Positions 1-24,428 of a stretch of 32,000 nucleotides of DNA are shown here, one piece after another (the first letter of the stretch is position 1; the number at the start of each line of letters is the position of its first letter). The DNA is from Serratia marcescens (GTDB lineage Bacteria > Pseudomonadota > Gammaproteobacteria > Enterobacterales > Enterobacteriaceae), in contig JADMXW010000031.1 in the NCBI GenBank assembly GCA_015548865.1, positions 1 to 32,000 on the forward strand, given 5' to 3'. A model generated the notes under the pieces. The model had not been told where the DNA came from and ran no database searches. It was given only the letters and a program-made list of their open reading frames with translations. The position numbers and the translations under genes are program-made.

Positions 1-54
1 CCCGTGGCTGACGATGCAGACTGGTCACCCGTGGCTGACGATGCAGACTGGTTG
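1..54. repeat. 27-bp tandem direct repeat, two copies at 25/27 identity, probably continuing beyond the window
   Basis: cccgtggctgacgatgcagactggtca (1-27) and cccgtggctgacgatgcagactggttg (28-54). The repeat is in frame and encodes G(N/D)QSASSAT repeats of the - strand ORF. Confidence 0.9.
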
Positions 55-407
55 CCCTTAACATGATCGCCTTTCTTCTTGTCGCACCGCTTTGTGGTGT
101 ATTCGATTGAAGCCTTCACGATACCTGCAATTGTCAGCGCTGCTTTGATTGAAATTTTCCGGCTGGCTACCTTGCTGTCATCTTCATGCCGGGATAAATC
201 ACCTTCTTGCTCACAGGTGGCGTAAACGGACGTTCCCGGCTCGTAGTAACCGAAGCAGTCAAGCGGATACTCACACGCATGAAATCCAGATGAGCAGGCT
301 TCAACATCGCCTTTATGCTCGAAAGTCTTACCGATTTCGAACTGATACCCACGGCACTGCATGCTTGCGTTAAAGCCTTTGTAGGTAATGATTTTCTCGT
401 CGCTCAT
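1..407 (-). CDS. Hypothetical early-left protein, with its 3' end outside the window. It has a Cys/His-rich N-terminal domain followed by G-x-QSASSAT nonapeptide repeats.
   Basis: ATG at 407 (complement) with AGGAAG 5 nt upstream. The frame stays open to the window edge (135 codons: MSDEKIITYKGFNASMQCRGYQFEIGKTFEHKGDVEACSSGFHACEYPLDCFGYY...KGNQSASSATGDQSASSATG). It is missing from the ORF track because it has no stop codon in the window. Confidence 0.7.
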   Translation of the reverse strand, partial: MSDEKIITYKGFNASMQCRGYQFEIGKTFEHKGDVEACSSGFHACEYPLDCFGYYEPGTSVYATCEQEGDLSRHEDDSKVASRKISIKAALTIAGIVKASIEYTTKRCDKKKGDHVKGNQSASSATGDQSASSAT

Positions 408-432
408 AGCGGCTTCCTTAGAATTTAATCGT

Positions 433-454
433 AAAAAAAAGCCGCTATTGCGGC
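433..454 (-). terminator. Rho-independent terminator inside the PL operon
   Basis: On the - strand: GCCGC-AATA-GCGGC stem-loop followed by an 8-nt U run (A run at 433-440 on +). Confidence 0.7.
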
Positions 455-479
455 GTGGTATTCTCTGGTGTTGGCGGGG

Positions 480-713
480 TTATTCTTCTGAAATAGTGAA
501 TCCTTGACCTTCAAGCCATTTGATTACATCGCCAGTTCCGATTGCATCCAGCAAATCATCTGCGTCGTATTCAGGTACTATTTCATCAGCCTTTACTGCA
601 TCGGCTATGTCTAAATCTTCCACATCAATTTCAATGTAATTTCTGTATGGCCCAGATCCATAAGGAGCCACACCATTTAACTGCTTTGCGTTAAAAGTTC
701 CACTAACTGCCAT
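480..713 (-). CDS. Hypothetical, strongly acidic 77-aa protein
   Basis: Complete ORF. GAGG lies immediately upstream of the ATG at 713. It has 17 Asp/Glu against 4 Lys/Arg. Its start is 3 nt after the stop of the upstream basic micro-ORF. Confidence 0.7.
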   Translation of the reverse strand: MAVSGTFNAKQLNGVAPYGSGPYRNYIEIDVEDLDIADAVKADEIVPEYDADDLLDAIGTGDVIKWLEGQGFTISEE

Positions 714-716
714 ACC

Positions 717-845
717 TCACCCCTTACGCATCTTCTGATGCGACTTTTTAGCTTCTTTGCGACGAATACGCATTTCATTGCGCATGGTTGGATTTCTTAA
801 ATTGCGTACCTGAACTGGAATATAGAAATTGCCTTTATCGTTCAT
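717..845 (-). CDS. Hypothetical 42-aa highly basic peptide (MNDKGNFYIPVQVRNLRNPTMRNEMRIRRKEAKKSHQKMRKG)
   Basis: ATG at 845 with AGAAGG upstream; TGA at 717-719. It is below the ORF-track size cut-off. It has 13 Lys/Arg in 42 aa and fills the gap between flanking genes on the same strand. Confidence 0.5.
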   Translation of the reverse strand: MNDKGNFYIPVQVRNLRNPTMRNEMRIRRKEAKKSHQKMRKG

Positions 846-872
846 TGGCTACCTTCTGATGCGATGATGTAA

Positions 873-896
873 TAAAAAAGCCGCTCTAGGCGGCTT
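873..896 (-). terminator. Rho-independent terminator inside the PL operon
   Basis: On the - strand: AGCCGC-CTAGA-GCGGCT stem-loop followed by UUUUUUAUU. Confidence 0.7.
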
Positions 897-897
897 G

Positions 898-1110
898 TTA
901 ATCTTCTACAACAGCACCTTGATACCATCTCGGGAAAATAACCTTTCTTACCTTGACGGTACCAAGCCGATAGTTATCTCCAAAAATGGCCTTTCCGAAA
1001 AATTCTGATGTAGACAAGTTTCTTTTGGATACGGTCTTTAACTTACCGTTGTGATCTACCGTATCCCCCGGCTTAATTTCAGATATATGACATTCGACGA
1101 TGCGCATCAT
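898..1110 (-). CDS. Hypothetical 70-aa protein immediately downstream of N
   Basis: The track ORF 898..1203 is trimmed to ATGATG at 1110/1107, which has GAGGTGA just upstream and lies 5 nt after the N stop codon. The longer version would overlap N. Confidence 0.65.
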   Translation of the reverse strand: MMRIVECHISEIKPGDTVDHNGKLKTVSKRNLSTSEFFGKAIFGDNYRLGTVKVRKVIFPRWYQGAVVED

Positions 1111-1114
1111 CACC

Positions 1115-1396
1115 TCACTTAATAATATGCGTTGCGTCTTTACGGTTATTACGATGCCCCGCCTGATAAATGAAAACTTGAGGTAGGCACACATTGTCTG
1201 CACTGTCGTATACAGGGGTGTCTCGTACCATCAGAGCTTTATCTACGCGGTTTGTAGCCTTTCTGCTGAGCGAAAGAGTAGGGCGTAATGCCTGTTTACC
1301 TTTCGCTGAGTTAATGCCAACCAGCAGGGGATTAGCTGCTTTCCAGTCTGCCTGTTTTGCTGCGCGAGATTCACGGCGGCGTTCTTGTGCGTTCAT
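1115..1396 (-). CDS. N: Antitermination protein N (lambda N family)
   Basis: The N-terminus MNAQERRRESRAAKQADWKAANPLLVG matches the lambda N arginine-rich motif (MDAQTRRRERRAEKQAQWKAANPLLVG, from memory). AGGAGG lies 4 nt upstream. It is the first gene after PL/nutL. Confidence 0.9.
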   Translation of the reverse strand: MNAQERRRESRAAKQADWKAANPLLVGINSAKGKQALRPTLSLSRKATNRVDKALMVRDTPVYDSADNVCLPQVFIYQAGHRNNRKDATHIIK

Positions 1397-1555
1397 ACAT
1401 CCTCCTGTCAGTTAGCTTTGGTGGTGTGGTGCGGTGACCATTGTTTCGGAGCGACTTCACTCGTTTCCCGCTGGTGCTACGCTCGCTTATGGCTGTGCGC
1501 TGGTCGCTTCCAGTTGCTTTGCGCCACACCCCAAAGCCTACTGCTTTGAATGTTT

Positions 1556-1585
1556 GCGCTTCTTCAGCGCCCTATGTTAAGTGGG
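1556..1585 (-). promoter_or_regulatory. nutL: boxB hairpin plus a boxA-like element
   Basis: On the - strand, boxB is GCGCU-GAAGA-AGCGC (1570..1556), with the same GAAGA pentaloop as lambda nutL. CCCACTTAA (1585..1577) lies 6 nt upstream and matches the CGCTCTTAA of nutR at 7/9. Confidence 0.8.
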
Positions 1586-1631
1586 CTGCATTCCTTGCCC
1601 TGTTACTGCCTCAGCGTCCTGCTGTGAGGTA

Positions 1632-1660
1632 AATATACCCATAGTTATTTGATGTGTAAA
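1632..1660 (-). promoter_or_regulatory. PL early-left promoter
   Basis: On the - strand: TTTACA (1660..1655), 17-nt spacer, TATATT (1637..1632). Both hexamers are overlapped by operator repeats. It is collinear with the PR architecture. Confidence 0.6.
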
Positions 1661-1717
1661 TACCCAAAGTTATAAAATTTATGCCAATGGGTATAACCCG
1701 TTGATAGCAGTGGGTAA
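1635..1717. promoter_or_regulatory. OL operator cluster: four copies of a 14-bp quasi-palindrome ATAnCnnnnGnTAT
   Basis: Sites at 1635-1648, 1660-1673, 1681-1694 and 1704-1717, all with a TGGGTA(T/A) core. Centre-to-centre spacing is 25, 21 and 23 bp. The same motif recurs three times at OR. Confidence 0.55.
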
Positions 1718-1767
1718 ATATTTTTATTTGGTGGGGAGTCTATTTTTTATGAGTGCGGGGTTGATCT

Positions 1768-1812
1768 TTGCGTTAAGCGGTAACAATATTTATACTGTAA
1801 ATAATTACAGTA
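1768..1812 (+). promoter_or_regulatory. LexA (SOS) box overlapping a rightward sigma70 promoter
   Basis: TACTGTAAATAATTACAGTA at 1793-1812 matches the consensus TACTGTATATATATACAGTA at 17/20, with exact CTG-N10-CAG spacing. The -10 is TATACT (1791-1796) and the -35 is TTGCGT (1768-1773), with a 17-nt spacer. Confidence 0.8.
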
Positions 1813-1859
1813 TTGAAGGAAAAAAGCGAAGGGAATTCGCCTCTTGCGAGGTTTTATTG

Positions 1860-2108
1860 ATGCGCATGGCATACGTTAGAAGGAAGGGTGGAGTCTATTA
1901 TGAAATGCCTGCCGCAGCGGTTAGCAACGGCAAGGGATTTGTGATTTATTGCTTAATTAGCCGCGATATGTACACAACAACGCCAATGATTTTTGCACTT
2001 TCGCTTACTGGGATTGGTGGTATCCCTTGCGCTGCTGGGACAAGAAAGCCTAAACCTTCGCCAGGAACAAACCGGTATATTGAGGCTGATCCGTGCACTT
2101 CTGCATAG
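1860..2108 (+). CDS. Candidate 82-aa ORF downstream of the LexA-box promoter, antisense to the last 163 nt of cI (speculative antirepressor)
   Basis: ATG at 1860 with GAGG 8 nt upstream. It is the in-frame 3' part of track ORF 1701..2108. It could equally be a shadow ORF of cI. Confidence 0.25.
   Translation: MRMAYVRRKGGVYYEMPAAAVSNGKGFVIYCLISRDMYTTTPMIFALSLTGIGGIPCAAGTRKPKPSPGTNRYIEADPCTSA
1900..1944 (+). CDS. Candidate 14-codon micro-ORF (MKCLPQRLATARDL) downstream of the LexA-box promoter
   Basis: ATG at 1900 with GGAG 6 nt upstream. The TGA at 1942-1944 ends 2 nt before the cI stop codon on the opposite strand. Confidence 0.25.
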   Translation: MKCLPQRLATARDL

Positions 2109-2557
2109 ACATAATCATTGTTTTCTGGCCGCTCAATCGTGTTGACAACAATGATTGATCCACTGGTGGCGTCCGGAAACCCAGTGTCTCTATTCAGCCT
2201 GTATGCTTTGCATCGCCTTGGGTTTATCCCTTTGGGAGCGGCAACAAAGTCTTTTAGTTGCTTATCACCATCCCACAGGGAGACGAACACCACGCCATCA
2301 ACCACCGGTGACTGGGCCTCGCCATCAAACTCAGAGGTAGAATCACTTTTCATCGGGCCAATGTTCATATCTAACCATTCCGGCCTAACCCCAAGGGCCA
2401 CTGCGATTTCAACTATGTGTCCTGACTTTTGAGTCTTGCCAGAAAGGATTTTGAAAATGCTGGGCTGAGCGATGCCTGCGGCTTCTGCAAGCTGAGCTTG
2501 ATTAAAGCCTCTCATATCCATCGCTAATTTCAGTCGTTCTGCAAGTGTCGTTTTCAT
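1946..2557 (-). CDS. cI: CI-type prophage repressor: N-terminal XRE helix-turn-helix and C-terminal S24/LexA-like domain, apparently lacking the autocleavage residues
   Basis: HTH segment FNQAQLAEAAGIAQPSIFKILSGK. The C-terminal half aligns by eye to lambda CI (KAYRL..FPDATSGSIIVV..IGVVV). It is divergent from cro across three operators. Start chosen at ATG 2557 (alternative 2569; the track start at 2593 is a TTG), because the predicted PRM would give a leaderless mRNA. Confidence 0.85.
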   Translation of the reverse strand: MKTTLAERLKLAMDMRGFNQAQLAEAAGIAQPSIFKILSGKTQKSGHIVEIAVALGVRPEWLDMNIGPMKSDSTSEFDGEAQSPVVDGVVFVSLWDGDKQLKDFVAAPKGINPRRCKAYRLNRDTGFPDATSGSIIVVNTIERPENNDYVYAEVHGSASIYRFVPGEGLGFLVPAAQGIPPIPVSESAKIIGVVVYISRLIKQ

Positions 2558-2564
2558 AGCCGTG

Positions 2565-2593
2565 AACATATAGCCGTGGTTATCTAGCGTCAA
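2565..2593 (-). promoter_or_regulatory. PRM-like maintenance promoter for cI
   Basis: On the - strand: TTGACG (2593..2588), 17-nt spacer, TATGTT (2570..2565). The predicted +1 falls at or near the A of ATG 2557, giving a leaderless mRNA as for lambda cI. The -35 abuts the middle operator. Confidence 0.5.
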
Positions 2594-2632
2594 ATATCTT
2601 TGGGTATTGATTTTATTTAAACCTATGGTTAT
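2570..2632. promoter_or_regulatory. OR operator cluster: three copies of the 14-bp motif
   Basis: Sites at 2570-2583 (ATAGCCGTGGTTAT), 2594-2607 (ATATCTTTGGGTAT) and 2619-2632 (AAACCTATGGTTAT). Spacing is 24 and 25 bp. They overlap PRM, PR -35 and PR -10 respectively. Confidence 0.6.
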
Positions 2633-2635
2633 TAT
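2607..2635 (+). promoter_or_regulatory. PR early-right promoter
   Basis: TTGATT (2607-2612), 17-nt spacer, TATTAT (2630-2635). It aligns almost base for base with the PL region (cTTTGGGTATT...CTATGG(G/T)TAT). Confidence 0.65.
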
Positions 2636-2663
2636 TCTCTATGAACAAAACAAGGAACCGCTT

Positions 2664-2909
2664 ATGACCAGCAAACCCAAGATCAACCATGTTATCAAGG
2701 CTGCGATTGAGGCTGTTGGGAGCCAGAAAAAGCTGGCTGTTGAGGTGGGTGTGAGTCAGCCGAACGTCTGGTGCTGGCTTCACAATAAAAAGCGCGTATC
2801 GCCAGAGAATGTTAATGCGATTGTTGCTGCCACAAAGGGCGTGATTAAAGCACATGAAATCCGTCCTGATCTGCCTCAGCTTTTCCCTCATCCAGAGAAA
2901 GCTGCTTAG
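2664..2909 (+). CDS. cro: Cro-like transcriptional regulator (HTH, Cro/YdaS-like)
   Basis: ATG at 2664 with AAGGAA upstream. HTH segment QKKLAVEVGVSQPNVWCWL. It is the first gene of the PR operon, divergent from cI. Confidence 0.85.
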   Translation: MTSKPKINHVIKAAIEAVGSQKKLAVEVGVSQPNVWCWLHNKKRVSPENVNAIVAATKGVIKAHEIRPDLPQLFPHPEKAA

Positions 2910-2915
2910 AAATTC

Positions 2916-2946
2916 CGCTCTTAAACATCTCGCTCTGAAGAAGAGC
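2916..2946 (+). promoter_or_regulatory. nutR: boxA plus boxB
   Basis: CGCTCTTAA (2916-2924) is identical to lambda boxA. boxB is GCTCT-GAAGA-AGAGC (2932-2946). A C-rich, G-poor tract follows (2950-2975) and could be the rut site of a tR1-like terminator. Confidence 0.85.
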
Positions 2947-3013
2947 ATTACCACAAACAAACACGAACCAACGTGGCCCAGCTACGGCTTTGTCACGTCT
3001 TAACAACAGGAAA

Positions 3014-3046
3014 ATAGTACCGAATGGATAACGCAAAGACACGCAA
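3014..3046 (-). promoter_or_regulatory. PRE-like CII-activated promoter
   Basis: On the - strand: TTGC-GTGTCT-TTGC (3046..3033), then 13 nt, then TACTAT (3019..3014). This has the same geometry as lambda PRE (TTGC-N6-TTGC, 13 nt, AAGTAT). It lies inside the first codons of cII. Confidence 0.65.
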
Positions 3047-3293
3047 AGACGCTCTGAAAATAGAGAGTGCTTTGCTTAACAAAATTGCTGTGAAAGGGGT
3101 AAGCGCTATTGCTGATTTAGTGGGCGTAAATCCTTCACAGATAACCCGGTGGAAAGAGTCGCTGATACCGCGCATGAGCTTACTTCTTGCGGTGTTGGAA
3201 TGGGGAGTTAACGACGACGATCTGGCGCATCTGGCTAAGCAAGTTGCGTTACTGCTGACCAAACAATCACAGGCGGGAGAATTCGAAGCCTAG
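3024..3293 (+). CDS. cII: CII transcriptional activator
   Basis: ALKIESALLNKIA...SQITRWK...LLAVLEWGVNDDD closely matches lambda CII (ALRIESALLNKIA...SQISRWK...LLAVLEWGVVDDD, from memory). Confidence 0.9.
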   Translation: MDNAKTRKDALKIESALLNKIAVKGVSAIADLVGVNPSQITRWKESLIPRMSLLLAVLEWGVNDDDLAHLAKQVALLLTKQSQAGEFEA

Positions 3294-3302
3294 GGGGATT
3301 TC

Positions 3303-3554
3303 ATGAATCACATGGAGTTCATAGAAAAAAACGTTAGAGACACGTTATTGCGTGACGGATACACGCCATCTCTGGCGAATATCGGAGCGATGAAAGCGGT
3401 TGAGTTTTATCGCCGTTCGTCTCAGGCCAGCAAAAAGGGTCGGATATTCGATGACTGCTTACGCGAAGGAAAGCTATGGGCAGACAAAAACAAGACGGTA
3501 GCGGATGCGCCGAAGAAGCCAAGAGGTAAGCCACGAAATGGTGCTCTCTTCTGA
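3303..3554 (+). CDS. Hypothetical protein (83 aa)
   Basis: Complete ORF. GGGGGA lies upstream of the ATG, 9 nt after the cII stop. Confidence 0.65.
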   Translation: MNHMEFIEKNVRDTLLRDGYTPSLANIGAMKAVEFYRRSSQASKKGRIFDDCLREGKLWADKNKTVADAPKKPRGKPRNGALF

Positions 3555-3584
3555 AAATAAAAATCCCCACTGGCAGGTGAGGAT
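3553..3584 (-). terminator. Rho-independent terminator for the reverse-strand gene 3632..3883
   Basis: On the - strand: AUCCUCAC-CUGCCA-GUGGGGAU (8 bp including one G-U) followed by UUUUUAUUUU. On the + strand the stem has an A-C mismatch and no U tract. Confidence 0.6.
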
Positions 3585-3631
3585 TCAGGGCAAATAACAA
3601 TTACTTTTTAGCAGGTATCAAATGAAAGAAT

Positions 3632-3883
3632 TCATTGCAAGAAATGTTTGTTTTCTGGCACTACGATTTTTCCGCCCAGCTTTGTTTCGATCTCGCGGAT
3701 GGAAGACAGAAGCATTGCTGTTGCCTTTGCTTCCAGAACCACCGAAATCTCCAGAGTTATGCCTAACTCAGCAGGAACGGGATGAGGGTAGACAAGCTGT
3801 AGTCGTCCTGTATCTGGGTCGTAAGAAACCTTACTGATGATCTCTATCGGTATTACAGATGGATTTCTCTTATTTTCGCTCAT
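3632..3883 (-). CDS. Hypothetical 83-aa protein: a reverse-oriented inserted gene (moron) between the cII region and the replication genes
   Basis: ATG at 3883 with GGAG 7 nt upstream (the track ORF is trimmed from 4003). It is bracketed by - strand terminators. Confidence 0.6.
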   Translation of the reverse strand: MSENKRNPSVIPIEIISKVSYDPDTGRLQLVYPHPVPAELGITLEISVVLEAKATAMLLSSIREIETKLGGKIVVPENKHFLQ

Positions 3884-3937
3884 GAAACCACTCCATTTAA
3901 TTGTGGATTTCAAGAGTACGCCAAATTTGCAGGACGG

Positions 3938-3968
3938 AAAAAGAAAAAGCCATCGGCGGCAACCGATG
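3938..3968 (-). terminator. Rho-independent terminator, possibly the 3' end of an oop-like antisense RNA
   Basis: On the - strand: CAUCGG-UUGCCG-CCGAUG followed by GCUUUUUCUUUUU. Confidence 0.6.
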
Positions 3969-4018
3969 ACTCTCAAGTTTCGATGGATTTTTAACTGGAT
4001 CAATTCACAGGAATAAGT

Positions 4019-4213
4019 ATGTCAGCAAACATCGAAAAGGTAAATACTCACCCGACTCACAAGTGTTCATTCTGCGATAAAACCAATGACGAATTAAGGC
4101 TAATCATTGCTGGCACCGGCGTTTGCATTTGCAATGAGTGTGTCCTTATTTGCGTAGAGATTGTTTTTGATCGCTACAAAAACGGGGAGGGTGAAGATGA
4201 GCCTAGCGCATAG
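4019..4213 (+). CDS. Stand-alone ClpX-type C4 zinc-finger (zinc-binding domain) protein, 64 aa
   Basis: HKCSFCDKTNDELRLIIAGTGVCICNECVLICVEIV matches the ClpX N-terminal domain ([35 protein letters not shown], from memory). There is no AAA+ module. Confidence 0.8.
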   Translation: MSANIEKVNTHPTHKCSFCDKTNDELRLIIAGTGVCICNECVLICVEIVFDRYKNGEGEDEPSA

Positions 4214-4979
4214 AAAAATATCACCTATCAGACCTGATTTGCAGGTCGTGGAGCCTCGCGTGGTTGATCTCGAAGATGGTTACACGCGAACTGCTAACGA
4301 ATTGCTTGAGGCCGTGATGTTATCCGGCTTGACGCAACACCAATTGCTGATTGTTATTGCCGTATGGAGAAAGACATACGGCTACAACAAGAAAATGGAC
4401 TGGATCGGCAATGAGCAGTTCGAAGCACTTACAGGGATGGCTGCAACAAAATGCTCTACAGCGAAAAACGAGTTAATCAGGATGGGAGTCCTTGTACAGC
4501 AAGGGCGACAGGTAGGAATGAATAAGGCCGTTTCTGAGTGGAAAACTAAGTTTAACGGATTCGGTAAAACCTTTACTGATTCGGTAAAGAAAAACTTTCC
4601 TGAATCGGTAAAAAGTGATTTACCGAAACGGTCAAACACAAAAGACAATATTACAAAAGACAATAAAGACATTAAAAATATAGGGAGTGACGACCCGAAA
4701 AAATCCCCCAAAAAGGAGAAAAAGGCGACGCAGCGATCACCTAATTTCTCCCCATCCGCAAAGCATGAATCTCTGGCCTATGAGTTAGGAGTTAACCTGC
4801 AAAACGAGTTTTTGAAGTTTGTCGATTACCACGACTCAAAGGGAACCACTTTCAAGAATTGGGATGCTGCTTTGAACATGTGGCTGCGCAACGCAGTCAG
4901 GTACAGCAAACCAACTGTGAGAGGTGTTTCCCGACCTAGCCAACCAATGAACCACATACCGGAGGGCTTCACAGGATGA
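4197..4979 (+). CDS. O: Replication initiator, lambda O-like (Phage_rep_O N-terminal domain)
   Basis: ATG at 4197 with GGAGGG upstream (the track start at 4161 is a TTG). Signature GYTRTANELLEAVMLSGLTQHQLLIVIAVWRKTYGYNKKMDWI. It contains the iteron origin internally, as lambda O does. Confidence 0.85.
   Translation: MSLAHRKISPIRPDLQVVEPRVVDLEDGYTRTANELLEAVMLSGLTQHQLLIVIAVWRKTYGYNKKMDWIGNEQFEALTGMAATKCSTAKNELIRMGVLVQQGRQVGMNKAVSEWKTKFNGFGKTFTDSVKKNFPESVKSDLPKRSNTKDNITKDNKDIKNIGSDDPKKSPKKEKKATQRSPNFSPSAKHESLAYELGVNLQNEFLKFVDYHDSKGTTFKNWDAALNMWLRNAVRYSKPTVRGVSRPSQPMNHIPEGFTG
4558..4680. repeat. Probable origin of replication inside the O gene: four iterons plus an AT-rich tract
   Basis: GATTCGGTAAA at 4558-4568 and 4578-4588; GAATCGGTAAA at 4602-4612; inverted TTTACCGAAAC at 4619-4629. 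An A/T-rich region follows at 4631-4680, containing a 13-bp direct repeat ACAAAAGACAATA (4638-4650 and 4653-4665). Confidence 0.7.
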
Positions 4980-5710
4980 GCGATTTAATTCGACGCCTAC
5001 AGGCTGCCATGCCTCCGGGCATCAAGCCAAAGTTCACGACGCCGGAAGAATGGGTGGAGTGGCAGAAGGAGCAGGGCCGGAAGGATTCGGAGCGCATTGC
5101 AGAGCAGAACCGCATTACCCGGCTGCAAAAAGTCCTCGGGCGATCTGGAATTCAGGAGCTTCACCGCACTTGCACATTCCAGAATTACAACGCTGAATTA
5201 CCGGGGCAACGTAATGCGCTGGATAAAGCCAAGCAGTATGCGAACCAGTTCGGCGGAGGGTTTGGTGGGTTCATTTTCAGCGGCGGTTGTGGCACTGGGA
5301 AAAACCATCTGGCGGCGGCTATCGGTAATCACCTGCTGGCGAAAAACAAATCCGTGCTGGTTGTCACCGTGCCCGACCTGATGATGCGATTTCGTGAAAC
5401 CTATCAGGACGGTGCGAAGCTGTCAGAGCATGACCTGATGAGCGACCTGTGCAACGTTGATCTGCTGATTCTGGACGATATCGGTGTGCAGCGCGGCAAC
5501 AAAAACGAGGAGGTAGTGCTGTTCCAAATCGTTGATCGCCGCCTGTCTGCAAAGAAGCCTGTGGGGATGCTAACAAACCTCAACGTTGAGCAATTAACCG
5601 AGCTACTTACCGAGCGAATCATGGACAGAATGCGAATGGACGGCGGCATGTGGGTAAATTTCGACTGGCCCAGCTATCGGAAAAATGTCCGGTCAAATCA
5701 GGGGGAGTAG
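4976..5710 (+). CDS. dnaC: DnaC-like helicase loader (AAA+ ATPase)
   Basis: GRSGIQELHRTCTFQNY...FIFSGGCGTGKNHLAAAIGNHLL...DLLILDDIGVQ...MLTNLN is close to E. coli DnaC. Its start forms an ATGA overlap with the O stop. Confidence 0.9.
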   Translation: MSDLIRRLQAAMPPGIKPKFTTPEEWVEWQKEQGRKDSERIAEQNRITRLQKVLGRSGIQELHRTCTFQNYNAELPGQRNALDKAKQYANQFGGGFGGFIFSGGCGTGKNHLAAAIGNHLLAKNKSVLVVTVPDLMMRFRETYQDGAKLSEHDLMSDLCNVDLLILDDIGVQRGNKNEEVVLFQIVDRRLSAKKPVGMLTNLNVEQLTELLTERIMDRMRMDGGMWVNFDWPSYRKNVRSNQGE

Positions 5711-6522: not shown

Positions 6523-6665
6523 TGAGCGACAAAACTGAATGCGACGTTTGCGGAAAAGAGATTTCCACTCTGGCTATTTACAGTGGCGATGGCAATGAGG
6601 AATTGTGCGCCGATTGTTACCACGACATTTACGACATCGATGAAGATACTTTGATTGAGGATTAG
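6522..6665 (+). CDS. Small 47-aa Cys4 zinc-ribbon-like acidic protein
   Basis: GGAGG lies 5 nt upstream of the ATG. It has CDVC...CADC motifs. It is below the track size cut-off. Confidence 0.55.
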   Translation: MSDKTECDVCGKEISTLAIYSGDGNEELCADCYHDIYDIDEDTLIED

Positions 6666-6667
6666 CC

Positions 6668-6826
6668 ATGAGCACAGAACAGCAGCAACAATTCCTTGAG
6701 CGTTGCATAGAAGAGCAGCGTAAGCGCAATGCACCAGATTTACTCCGCCTATGGAGGTTGCAACAGGAAGAGAAATATCTGAACGAAATCCGCAGTTTCT
6801 ACCGAGAAATTAACTGGAGCCTATGA
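6668..6826 (+). CDS. Hypothetical 52-aa protein
   Basis: ATG lies 2 nt after the upstream stop, and its own stop overlaps the next start (ATGATGA). It is below the track size cut-off. Confidence 0.5.
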   Translation: MSTEQQQQFLERCIEEQRKRNAPDLLRLWRLQQEEKYLNEIRSFYREINWSL

Positions 6827-12580: not shown

Positions 12581-12633
12581 ACGTCGCGCCAACGTCCTGG
12601 TTGCGTTCACTAATTGGCGATAGTGAGGCGACT

Positions 12634-13221
12634 ATGTTCAATGTTGCATATCTTAAATCACTCGAAATCAGAAAGCCCCTTACCGTAAGGTTGATGAAAC
12701 GAGTTGAGGTGGATGAAGATTCAGGATGCTGGGTGTTCATGGGCAGTAAAGACCGTTGTGGTTACGGAAGAATGAAGGTTGGGCCTCACAGCTTGGGCGC
12801 TCACAAGGTCGCGTATTTAATGCTGGTCGGAGATTACGACCAATCAAGACTTGAATTAATGCATACCTGTGACAATCCAGCATGCATAAATCCTGATCAC
12901 CTTATCCCCGCCACCCACAAAGAAAATATCGATGACTGCATAAATAAAGGAAGACACACAAGCCAAATATACAAGGCACATCTTGGCAGGAAGAGAAAGA
13001 AAGTTATCGATAATAACCATAATGAAAAAATGAATGGGTCTGGTTTAATCGCCTTTTTCTCATCAAGAAAACTTGCTATCGCATTAGGTGAGAAAACCTA
13101 CAGCGGTTCAGTCTGCGAGAAGCATCAAATGACGATAAGAAAGACAAACAACGGTGCTTGCATTTATTGCATGGAAGAATACCGGATTAACAAAACAGCA
13201 TCTCGCAGAGCTCAATGCTAA
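12634..13221 (+). CDS. HNH endonuclease (HNH_3 type) with a C-terminal Cys-rich segment
   Basis: ATG at 12634 with GTGAGG upstream (the track start at 12601 is a TTG). Signature CGYGRMKV...GAHKVAYLM...HTCDNPACINPDHLIPATHKENIDD. Confidence 0.85.
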   Translation: MFNVAYLKSLEIRKPLTVRLMKRVEVDEDSGCWVFMGSKDRCGYGRMKVGPHSLGAHKVAYLMLVGDYDQSRLELMHTCDNPACINPDHLIPATHKENIDDCINKGRHTSQIYKAHLGRKRKKVIDNNHNEKMNGSGLIAFFSSRKLAIALGEKTYSGSVCEKHQMTIRKTNNGACIYCMEEYRINKTASRRAQC

Positions 13222-13322: not shown

Positions 13323-13471
13323 GCCCGTAGGAAACCAAACAGTGCATTCGCGTGCACTTCACTAGAGAGCTTTCCGTAGTGTGAGTCTGAGATAGGGCGG
13401 TGGATTACATCGTTCCGCTCTCGGCTGCCCATGTCTACGCGAACAGGCTCGCACCACAGAAGGTAAATACG

Positions 13472-14155
13472 ATGCAATTAGTAATTTCTGATGTTGCCGT
13501 AAAGCAAGATAAAGATGGTCGCTATTGTCTGAATGATTTACACAAGGCGGCTGGTGGTGAACGTCGTAACGATCCGCATGATTGGATGCGCCTCAAACAG
13601 ACAAAAGACCTCATTAATTTATTGAGCGATACGGGAATTCCCGTAACGACCGTAAAGGGTGGGAAGAATCAAGGTACATTCGTGTGCAAGGAATTGGTTT
13701 ATTCCTACGCCATGTGGATAAGCCCCGAGTTCAACCTCCGGGTTATTCGCACATTTGATGCTTTGGCCGCTAAAGAGAAGATTCGCGTTTCTTATCGAGA
13801 TACAGCTCGTCTTGAATACAAGCCCATGACCGACGCTATCAAGCATGAGCGACAGGCTCAGGGTAAGCAGATTTCACCGCACCACTTCAGCAACGAGGCC
13901 GACCTGATTAATCGTATCGCGCTTGATATGACGGCGGCGAAATTCCGCGTCTATCACGAGATTGATAAGAAAGAGAGCATCCGAGACTACCTGACACCTG
14001 AGCAGATCCACTGCATCACCGAGTTGCAGCGTGCAAACACGGTATTTATCAGTATGGGCTGGGACTTCGAGCATCGCAAAGAGGTGCTGAAGGGGATGTT
14101 TGAGCGCAACCACCGGCAACCGTTGATTGAAGAACAGCACAGATTGGCGGCATAG
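13472..14155 (+). CDS. KilA-N domain protein (antirepressor/Bro-like family)
   Basis: ATG at 13472 with GAAGG upstream. KDGRYCLNDLHKAAGGERRNDPHDWMRLKQTKDLI...GTFVCKELVYSYAMWISPEFNLRVI is a typical KilA-N signature. Confidence 0.8.
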   Translation: MQLVISDVAVKQDKDGRYCLNDLHKAAGGERRNDPHDWMRLKQTKDLINLLSDTGIPVTTVKGGKNQGTFVCKELVYSYAMWISPEFNLRVIRTFDALAAKEKIRVSYRDTARLEYKPMTDAIKHERQAQGKQISPHHFSNEADLINRIALDMTAAKFRVYHEIDKKESIRDYLTPEQIHCITELQRANTVFISMGWDFEHRKEVLKGMFERNHRQPLIEEQHRLAA

Positions 14156-23433: not shown

Positions 23434-23822
23434 CCCTTACAGAAATTCGTAATGCTGTCATCACCAGAATGACGGCGCAGACTGCTATTGCCGCAAGCGC
23501 AGTAAGTTATCCCAACGGGGCCACATTCGACCCAACCGGGAAAGCCATCTGGGCGAGATTAACCAACATACCCGGTCAGGCTGGTGCAAATGAAATCGGC
23601 GCTGGCCCGGTGGTTCACCGCACTGGAATTGTCATTATTCAGCTATTCGTCCCTGCTGGTTCAGGCTCGAAGCTGATCACCCAAACCGCCGACCAAATCC
23701 GCGCGCTATTCGAGTTTCAAGACGATGGCGCATTGAGCTATTTCTCCGTCTCTGCGTATGACTCTGGCGAAGCTGACGGTTGGGCGCAAATGAATTTAAA
23801 CATCCCTTACCGGGCGCTGTAA
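23430..23822 (+). CDS. Tail terminator protein (gpU-like / DUF4128-like, by position)
   Basis: 130 aa. It is the last gene before the major tail protein, apart from the inserted HNH gene. Confidence 0.6.
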   Translation: MTLTEIRNAVITRMTAQTAIAASAVSYPNGATFDPTGKAIWARLTNIPGQAGANEIGAGPVVHRTGIVIIQLFVPAGSGSKLITQTADQIRALFEFQDDGALSYFSVSAYDSGEADGWAQMNLNIPYRAL

Positions 23823-24428
23823 CCTTAAATCAAGTCGTTTAAATCTCGTTGGATATTTAGCACAGTACGGTGGCTTTAAATCACCAACCTTTACATGAAG
23901 CCATAGTTTTCCTCCGTTTATGCCTGATATTACCCGATCGCTAATCCCGTATATCTTGCTAATGCTGATATGGGTTTCACCGGAAGTTAAGCGATGGATT
24001 ATGTCAATAACATCCGACTCGGTTAGCTTCGATGTTGTGACTTTGCTACCCCTGCGAGGGTTTGCTCTACCCATAGACATCATATGAGCGGAATTACCAG
24101 CAGTAGTGGTCCATTCTAGGTTTAAAAAGTGATTATTTGAGCGGTCACAATCGATATGGTTAACAACGTCACAACCATCTTGTTTTTCACAAAATGCCTC
24201 AGCAACCATGCGATGAATTTGCCTGTGGTGAGACTTCCTTCCCCCAGTCCTGAAAGAGACGCTTAGGTATCCATCCTTACTGGAGTAAGGGGAAATTATT
24301 TTTCCGGGGAAAAACCTATCCCATCCCTGCGGATAGCTGACGTATCTATCAATAGAGCGGAAAATTCCTGTGTTTGATATCTCATAAGATCCTTCAAAAC
24401 CGGCAACAGGTTTCCAAATTTCTTTCAT
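23796..24428 (-). CDS. Free-standing homing-type HNH endonuclease (NUMOD4 + HNH_3 + C-terminal HTH)
   Basis: WKPVAGFEGSYEISNTGIFRS (NUMOD4). HRMVAEAFC...VNHIDCDRSNNHFLNLEWTTTAGN (HNH). TSKLTESDVIDIIHRLTSGETHISISKIYGIS (HTH). GGAG RBS. It is inserted on the opposite strand within the tail operon. Confidence 0.85.
   Translation of the reverse strand: MKEIWKPVAGFEGSYEISNTGIFRSIDRYVSYPQGWDRFFPGKIISPYSSKDGYLSVSFRTGGRKSHHRQIHRMVAEAFCEKQDGCDVVNHIDCDRSNNHFLNLEWTTTAGNSAHMMSMGRANPRRGSKVTTSKLTESDVIDIIHRLTSGETHISISKIYGISDRVISGINGGKLWLHVKVGDLKPPYCAKYPTRFKRLDLRLQRPVRDV

Follow-up and report, generated by a model that had tools for sequence, protein, structure and literature searches.

The stretch of Serratia marcescens DNA analysed here (positions 1 to 32,000 of contig JADMXW010000031.1; hereafter the window) carries the immunity region of a lambdoid prophage, and concerns us for its cI-like repressor gene and a small gene that overlaps it. 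The repressor belongs to a family that retains the fold of an S24 peptidase, has substitutions in the catalytic columns and lacks a conserved Ala-Gly. Next to cI lie a LexA box and a short convergent open reading frame (ORF) with a coding signature, both of which co-occur strictly with this repressor family. We lean, at somewhat better than even chances, towards a non-cleavable pseudo-protease repressor that would be inactivated by a small LexA-controlled antirepressor. As part of that whole reading, the C-terminal domain of the repressor is taken to be a descendant of the S24/LexA peptidases that is now a pseudo-enzyme.

A 434-type repressor with a degenerate S24 domain

The minus-strand ORF from 2557 to 1946 encodes 203 residues and matches the 'transcriptional repressor' family phrog_4 of PHROGs (6.6e-28). 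Its N-terminal part is recognized by HTH_3 of Pfam (residues 9-62, 9.2e-09), and phmmer gave the 434 repressor as the nearest match of this helix-turn-helix (HTH) domain in the Protein Data Bank (PDB; residues 5-62, 7.9e-08). The Pfam profile Peptidase_S24 scores 25.1 bits against a cutoff of 23.3, with residues 130-195 covering profile positions 49-116 only, so that the half of the profile bearing the Ser motif is left unmatched. In the AlphaFold2 (AF2) model, which has a predicted local distance difference test (pLDDT) score of 85, the C-terminal domain is rich in β-structure. Structural similarity search using Foldseek revealed that this domain resembles M. tuberculosis LexA, UmuD' and the lambda CI C-terminal domain (TM(target) 0.65-0.71, root-mean-square deviation 2.5-2.9), and thus has the LexA/UmuD-like β-fold of the S24 peptidases. 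Database gene calls of the cI homologues (P0002-P0018) begin 20-25 codons further upstream (MSLNKVNTYRYLT..GYMF; 2558-2625 in the window); the apparent conserved N-terminal extension is translated DNA of OR2, OR3 and PRM, and the true start is the Met of MK(T/N).

To place the catalytic columns, an alignment of 18 full-length homologues (39-100% identity; from Pantoea, Klebsiella, Serratia, Winslowiella and Symbiopectobacterium) was compared by hhalign with a canonical S24 profile built from lambda CI, E. coli LexA and six canonical relatives, giving a probability of 99.8. Thr125 aligns with the Ser nucleophile and Tyr161 with the general-base Lys, and a profile of the C-terminal domain alone puts both residues in the same two columns. 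Among 85 distinct relatives, the nucleophile column holds Ser in 42 and Thr in 42, with one gap; its motif is [DNE][ST]G, not GxSM, and reads R-D-T-G in the present repressor. The base column is occupied by Tyr (75), Phe (8), Trp (1) and His (1), and by Lys in none. Asp148 and Gly192 are invariant throughout the 85 sequences. In the repressor itself, K117 is followed next by K189, with no lysine at 118-188.

The scissile bond is missing as well. Residues 66-95 contain neither Ala-Gly nor Cys-Gly, the sole Ala-Gly of the protein is A27-G28 within the HTH, and residues 29-203 are free of both dipeptides. Such dipeptides are sporadic in the family (8/85 relatives) and sit at non-homologous positions; three of the eight, from distant relatives, place Ala-Gly precisely at the 95-97 turn, the tip of a β-hairpin formed by residues 89-108. 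This hairpin is probably a shortened vestige of the cleavage-site region. Its alignment to the canonical region is ambiguous: hhalign pairs P108 with LexA P77, which implies that the cleavage-site region was deleted and which we judge untrustworthy; an ungapped match by eye of AAPKGINPRRCKAYRLNRDTG to LexA VDPSLFKPNADFLLRVSGMSM (P108 to P102) fits equally well and would make the hairpin the shortened region; and the profile of the C-terminal domain alone leaves this part unaligned. Because the Lys base and a conserved Ala-Gly are missing across the whole family, canonical self-cleavage of the repressor and its relatives is, at the level of sequence, very unlikely.

These results largely uphold what a preliminary description had read from the DNA by eye. 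The 203-aa ORF is as it was quoted, and the S24-like C-terminal domain is borne out by the Foldseek and hhalign matches and by the partial Pfam hit. Because the two hhalign profiles give the same columns, the earlier placement of Thr125 at the Ser and of Tyr-Arg at the Lys-Arg was right, and the alternative that had been named, Ser132 or Ser134 with Lys189, does not emerge from the profile alignments. The lysine-free interval between 117 and 189 and the linker without Ala-Gly or Cys-Gly were also correctly described. The proposed loss of the Ser/Lys dyad holds for the lysine; it does not hold for the serine, whose column is strictly Ser/Thr, with Thr in this protein.

A profile search of 1.84 billion representatives delimited the family: about 30 clusters (50% identity) were found at E<=1e-10, followed by a gap and then by ordinary S24 proteins. 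Its members come from prophages of Pantoea, Klebsiella, Serratia, Yersinia, Xenorhabdus and relatives, and among GenBank phage records from the Flyfo siphovirus Tbat2_3 and the Yersinia phages vB_YenM_21.09 and 06.16-1. A scan of genome contigs returned canonical Ser/Lys/Ala-Gly relatives or HTH-only matches, and no family members.

A LexA box and a small ORF accompany the repressor family

The surroundings of cI were compared at 44 IMG/VR loci encoding full-length family members, which amount to 17 lineages at 90% identity and 12 at 70%, and at 36 control loci from the same scan, whose repressors have a similar HTH but retain GxSM, Lys and Ala-Gly. The window contains a single perfect CTGT-N8-ACAG, which lies 136 nt past the cI stop, ahead of OL/PL, and 48 nt upstream of the start of the small ORF. 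At the family loci, a perfect box is found 104-136 nt past the cI stop in 40 of 44, and a one-mismatch box occupies the same place in three more; at the control loci there is none at that position (0/36), and elsewhere in 900 kb only 15 boxes occur. The sequence of the box varies among lineages, and the box is kept in 16 of the 17.

Two weak pairs of promoter-like hexamers precede the ORF, matching at 7-8 of 12 positions, and the box overlaps or follows the -10. Most lineages have a TTGAYN hexamer 25-31 nt upstream of the box in the orientation of the small ORF, with -10-like hexamers adjoining or overlapping the box. By sequence, the putative promoter of this small phage gene bears a LexA box, an arrangement of the N15, Gifsy, 186 and SPC32H type, and we infer that the box would bind LexA and that the hexamers would have promoter activity. 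A terminator-like hairpin in the leader of the small ORF (1836-1852, plus strand) was considered and set aside; it is unconserved in other lineages and is probably part of the cI terminator region. Rfam recognized no RNA family in positions 1-5000 of the window.

The small ORF is convergent with cI and antisense over its last 163 nt (85-163 nt among the family loci), with the third codon positions of the two genes facing each other. It is present in 45/45 loci and in the Flyfo and Yersinia 21.09 GenBank phages, that is, in all 47 family loci examined, and a purine-rich Shine-Dalgarno (SD) sequence precedes its start in every lineage (GAGG, 8 nt ahead of the ATG, in the window; ggagggagaacATG in locus L040). 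In the two GenBank records, the box is perfect in Flyfo and has one mismatch in 21.09. The encoded protein has 82 aa in the window and 51-82 aa among relatives, owing to a variable C-terminal tail, and shares the N-terminal motif M-x-x-A-[FYM]-[IVL]-R-x-x-x-G-x-Y-x-E-x-x-P-A.

The first 25-30 codons of the ORF are intergenic, and over the family they are conserved at the protein level while the DNA diverges. Summed column entropy at codon positions 1, 2 and 3 is 20.2, 19.3 and 29.3, the third position being the most variable, and pairwise comparison gave 275 synonymous codon differences in the ORF's own frame vs 88 and 49 in two shifted frames. The invariant Arg and Gly of the protein are written with several different codons. 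The ORF is unannotated in the Flyfo and Yersinia phage records; if it is indeed a key induction gene, annotation would overlook it on account of its opposite-strand overlap with the repressor gene.

Proposed induction pathway and alternatives

In the model we propose, CI would repress PR and PL through its HTH and an oligomerising pseudo-peptidase domain, which presumably persists as a dimerisation and cooperativity module. With an aromatic residue in place of the general-base Lys and no scissile Ala-Gly left in the shortened cleavage-site hairpin, RecA*-stimulated autocleavage would be unable to inactivate CI, and DNA damage would be sensed indirectly, through host LexA. LexA would keep the small convergent gene off at a promoter that lies 136 nt beyond the cI stop and faces back towards cI; upon cleavage of LexA, the small protein would be made, bind CI and inactivate it without proteolysis, and the convergent transcript may also interfere with cI expression. 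Two Yersinia phages with the module, vB_YenM_21.09 and 06.16-1, came from lysogens treated with mitomycin C (PMC9224151), which is the only indirect evidence from the family itself; further help for the model comes from the precedent of N15, discussed below. More tentatively, and in our estimate on the doubtful side, the small proteins may form a hitherto unannotated, SOS-controlled antirepressor family encoded antisense to the 3' end of the target repressor's gene, whose N-terminal hairpin (A-[FY]-[IV]-R-x-G-x-G-x-Y-x-E) docks in trans into the vestigial S24 cleft, where Ser/Thr is conserved, and mimics the lost cleavage-site region. The antisense overlap with facing third positions would then make repressor and antirepressor inseparable, co-evolving as one immunity cassette. 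The antirepressor hypothesis is open to direct testing by simple reporter assays.

Several observations weigh against this model. One locus (L024, IMGVR_UViG_2907847951_000001, ORF 6603-6760) has the small ORF and no recognisable LexA box; here the input signal may be another one. A consensus promoter scan missed the promoter hexamers, which are weak. Many of the 44 loci are closely related, so that they represent some 12-17 independent observations. The small protein matches nothing in Pfam, PHROG or NCBIfam, and a profile search of 5.8 billion protein clusters returned six copies, all unnamed; comparison with SPC32H Ant gave an hhalign probability of 0.04 (Tum, AntC and GfoA were not compared directly), and these four sources reveal no known antirepressor family that is homologous to it. 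The AF2 model of the protein is of low quality (pLDDT 43), shows a weak N-terminal hairpin only, and is not relied on here. Finally, the strict Ser/Thr occupancy of the nucleophile column in the repressors hints at a retained function.

That last observation bears on whether CI might cleave itself non-canonically, with the Thr/Ser nucleophile served by another base (the invariant Asp148, or Glu142) and a site other than Ala-Gly in hairpin 89-108. The Ser/Thr column, the invariance of Asp148, the retained hairpin and the Ala-Gly at its tip in three relatives would all fit. We consider such cleavage very improbable, given a base column with Lys in 0/85 relatives, a scissile dipeptide that is unconserved, the precedent of N15, whose repressor has similar losses and is experimentally non-proteolytic, and a linked LexA-controlled gene that would be redundant. 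Alternatively, the LexA-controlled promoter could act mainly through RNA, the peptide being secondary, by antisense or transcriptional interference with PRM transcripts, or by read-through past cI into cro-cII-O-P that bypasses the repressed PR. By construction the transcript is antisense to cI, the promoter is oriented like PR, and the length of the ORF's C-terminal tail is variable. Between the ORF and cro (1860-2660), the plus strand showed no terminator-like site, so that interference or read-through could occur and could reinforce an effect of the protein. An explanation centred on RNA is nonetheless unlikely in our view, since the N-terminal 20 codons, which lie outside cI, carry the coding signature (synonymous changes, and invariant Arg and Gly with differing codons), an SD is present in every lineage and the ORF is intact in all 47 loci.

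The small protein might instead be an SOS moron with another job, such as a toxin, cell-division inhibitor or exclusion factor, CI being inactivated otherwise or the prophage not being SOS-inducible. Its lack of likeness to known antirepressors would suit this, and LexA-controlled prophage morons do exist, for example the dinI homologues of Gifsy prophages (PMC3121763). Yet the ORF accompanies the Lys-less repressors in 47/47 loci and canonical repressors with a similar HTH in 0/36, the overlap with cI physically keeps the pair together, a family without autocleavage needs an SOS input, and module phages were recovered after mitomycin C; we regard a moron as quite unlikely. The preliminary description had offered the neighbouring LexA-box module and a KilA-N gene as candidate sources of an antirepressor. 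The module gained support from the box, common at family loci and absent from the controls, beside a conserved coding ORF. The KilA-N protein carries the domain (6e-25), and its PHROG matches include weak anti-repressor families (phrog_2127, 4.2e-08; phrog_63, 6e-05), the best ones being 'transcriptional regulator'. The LexA-like sequence ATGTCTACGCGAACAG at 13431-13446, 26 nt before its start, has one mismatch, which loses the essential C of CTG, and a GC-rich spacer; eight such one-mismatch sequences occur in the window vs 10.2 expected by chance. As this sole candidate box is at chance level, the gene has no credible LexA box and is rejected as an SOS-controlled trigger. It also lies 11 kb from the cI region, between lysis and terminase genes, which implies expression only after Q-dependent late transcription; that it encodes the inducing antirepressor is hardly credible. 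The earlier interpretation as a whole is thus partly supported, and the LexA-controlled small protein acting on a non-cleavable CI remains the model that we favour.

The immunity region and other features of the window

The immunity region has the lambdoid order N - PL/OL - cI - OR - cro - cII - O - P (Table 1). To the right of cII lie the replication gene O and then an IstB/DnaA-type ATPase gene at the position of lambda P, and O, a DnaC-like gene and Q count towards the lambdoid context of the window. The operator pattern has six matches in the 32 kb, all in OR or OL, vs 0.34 expected, a count to be read with the pattern having been derived from the same sites. A lambdoid CI is expected to have an HTH, a cro gene divergent from its own gene, and operator repeats in OR as well as OL on either side; all of these are present, and the HTH, the N, cro and cII neighbours and the six operators together identify the 203-aa protein as a CI-type immunity repressor. 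The -10 of PRM ends 7 nt before the cI ATG, so that the cI mRNA is probably leaderless, as in lambda.

Table 1. Coordinates of features in the window
Feature	Position	Strand	Basis
cI-like immunity repressor gene, 203 aa (HTH_3 + degenerate S24-fold domain)	1946..2557	-	ORF, Pfam, PHROG, AF2
434-type HTH DNA-binding domain, residues 1-65	2363..2557	-	phmmer vs PDB; helices 5-64 in AF2 model
S24/LexA-fold pseudo-peptidase domain (proposed), residues 86-203	1949..2302	-	Foldseek, hhalign
β-hairpin, residues 89-108 (VFVSLWDGDKQLKDFVAAP), W95-D96-G97 turn, without Ala-Gly	2234..2293	-	DSSP strands 89-96, 99-108 (AF2 model)
Thr125 codon (ACT), S24 Ser nucleophile column	2183..2185	-	hhalign: R-D-T125-G on G-N-S-M
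Tyr161 codon (TAC), S24 Lys general-base column	2075..2077	-	hhalign: S-I-Y161-R-F on x-x-K-x-L
Unannotated 82-aa ORF (MRMAYVRRKGGVYYEMPAAA...), candidate LexA-controlled antirepressor	1860..2108	+	SD, conservation, codon signature
LexA box TACTGTAAATAATTACAGTA, 17/20 to TACTG(TA)5CAGTA	1793..1812	.	pattern search; binding predicted
Promoter-like elements of small ORF: TTGATC 1761-1766 -17- CAATAT 1784-1789	1761..1796	+	weak match
Alternative promoter-like pair: TTGCGT 1768-1773 -17- TATACT 1791-1796	1761..1796	+	weak match
Terminator-like hairpin GCGAAttcccTTCGC + T6, downstream of cI	1820..1840	-	by eye; absent from the tool's list for this strand
OR, three 14-bp operators ATAMCC-N3-GNYWT: 2570-2583, 2594-2607, 2619-2632	2570..2632	.	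pattern search
PRM: TTGACG / TATGTT	2588-2593 / 2565-2570	-	promoter scan
PR: TTGATT...TATTAT	2607-2635	+	promoter scan
OL, three operators: 1635-1648, 1660-1673, 1681-1694	1632..1694	.	pattern search; overlaps PL
PL: TTTACA-17-TATATT	1660->1632	-	promoter scan
N antiterminator homologue	1115..1396	-	Pfam N36 6.4e-14, N_peptide 4.4e-11
nutL boxB GCGCTGAAGAAGCGC	1556-1570		read from sequence
cro-like gene, divergent from cI	2664..2909	+	Pfam YdaS_toxin/Cro 1.6e-18, P22_Cro 1.5e-4
cII	3024-3293		Pfam 2.3e-31
KilA-N domain gene, apparently outside the SOS module	13472..14155	+	Pfam KilA-N 6e-25

Some genes of the window lie apart from the induction question. Directly upstream of O, and overlapping its start (Phage_rep_O, 4197-4979), an ORF at 4019-4213 on the plus strand encodes a 64-aa stand-alone ClpX-type C4 zinc finger (PF06689, 4.9e-13). 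The O protein of lambda is a ClpXP substrate, so this zinc finger could be a phage decoy or modulator of ClpX. Downstream of the N operon, and behind a pair of terminator-like hairpins, a minus-strand gene (3-407) is cut off by the window's left edge; its product is a DUF7666 protein (3.7e-35) that contains G-[DN]-Q-S-A-S-S-A-T-G repeats in tandem. The window also has two homing-endonuclease-like genes of the HNH_3 type, at 12601-13221 (plus strand) and 23796-24428 (minus strand); one of them bears NUMOD4 and is an opposite-strand insertion among tail and head genes.

Comparison with known systems

The repressor shares its two-domain architecture and fold with lambda CI, 434 CI, P22 C2 and LexA, and its gene shares with those of canonical phage repressors the 14-bp 434-like operators, a tripartite OR and OL, a divergent cro and a probably leaderless PRM transcript. 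It differs from the canonical S24 repressors in having Tyr for the Lys base, Thr for Ser and no Ala-Gly, and in the stretch ahead of the nucleophile, which is shorter by 5-25 residues according to the alignment used. If the favoured model is right, it offers a clear-cut case in nature of a pseudo-enzyme derived from an S24 peptidase, with Ser/Thr kept, Lys lost and the cleavage-site loop shortened, and induction predictions that equate an S24 domain with RecA-cleavability would be wrong for this family.

A close parallel in logic is phage N15, whose repressor CB is experimentally non-proteolytic and whose induction needs an antirepressor of the SOS regulon (PMC10432266, citing Mardanov & Ravin 2007). 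Compared to canonical S24 proteins, CB (L105, NC_001901 34109-34717; annotated as 'LexA family transcriptional regulator') has GNQI for GNSM, Gln for Lys and a gap at the Ala-Gly region; judged on these replacements, it is a second, unrelated dead-S24 repressor. Both are CI-type repressors of about 200 aa with detectably related HTH domains (hhalign probability 94), but their C-terminal domains are not detectably related beyond the fold, and only the present family keeps the Ser/Thr nucleophile column. Their layouts differ too: the anti-repressor of the N15 record (gene 30) lies about 6 kb from cB and is not a small ORF overlapping the repressor gene. We take antC to be one of the genes in this gene 30 region.

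Gifsy repressors are shorter and are not known to have an S24-like domain. Their size is described as significantly different from that of the 216-237-aa lambda and P22 repressors, and GfoR, GftR and GfhR of Gifsy-1, -2 and -3 are served by small antirepressors, GfoA, GftA and GfhA, made from a LexA-repressed promoter (PMC3121763). A small antirepressor gene under LexA-type control is what we predict here as well. The Gifsy gene, unlike the present one, is not adjacent to the repressor gene; it is part of a dinI-antirepressor-irsA operon that lies downstream of the replication genes, at a distance of 1.3 kb (PMC3121763).

Phages 186 (CI/Tum) and SPC32H (Rep/Ant) likewise pair a non-cleavable repressor with a LexA-controlled antirepressor, as the present locus would. 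Tum of 186 has 146 aa and is encoded far from cI. In SPC32H, ant lies about 14 kb from rep, and homology to the present pair was considered and rejected: Rep reaches an hhalign probability of 3.9 against the repressor family, over a short HTH stretch only, and Ant shows no meaningful similarity to the small protein. Linear plasmid-like phages have TF-smORF modules, in which a very small protein of the phage shuts off its cI partner non-proteolytically (Silpe et al. 2023; PMC10432266). Their activation is independent of SOS and comes from a neighbouring transcription factor, whereas the present locus has its LexA box and a small gene that overlaps cI.

A search of full-text literature, in which few subscription journals were covered and an earlier account is therefore possible, turned up no description of this family of repressors, of the small ORF, or of any antirepressor gene that overlaps the gene of its repressor. 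The regulatory logic is already known from N15, Gifsy, 186 and SPC32H, whereas both proteins and the overlapping layout appear to be undescribed. Altogether, if our model is true, the locus would represent a third way, unrelated in sequence, of combining a non-cleavable repressor with a LexA-controlled antirepressor.

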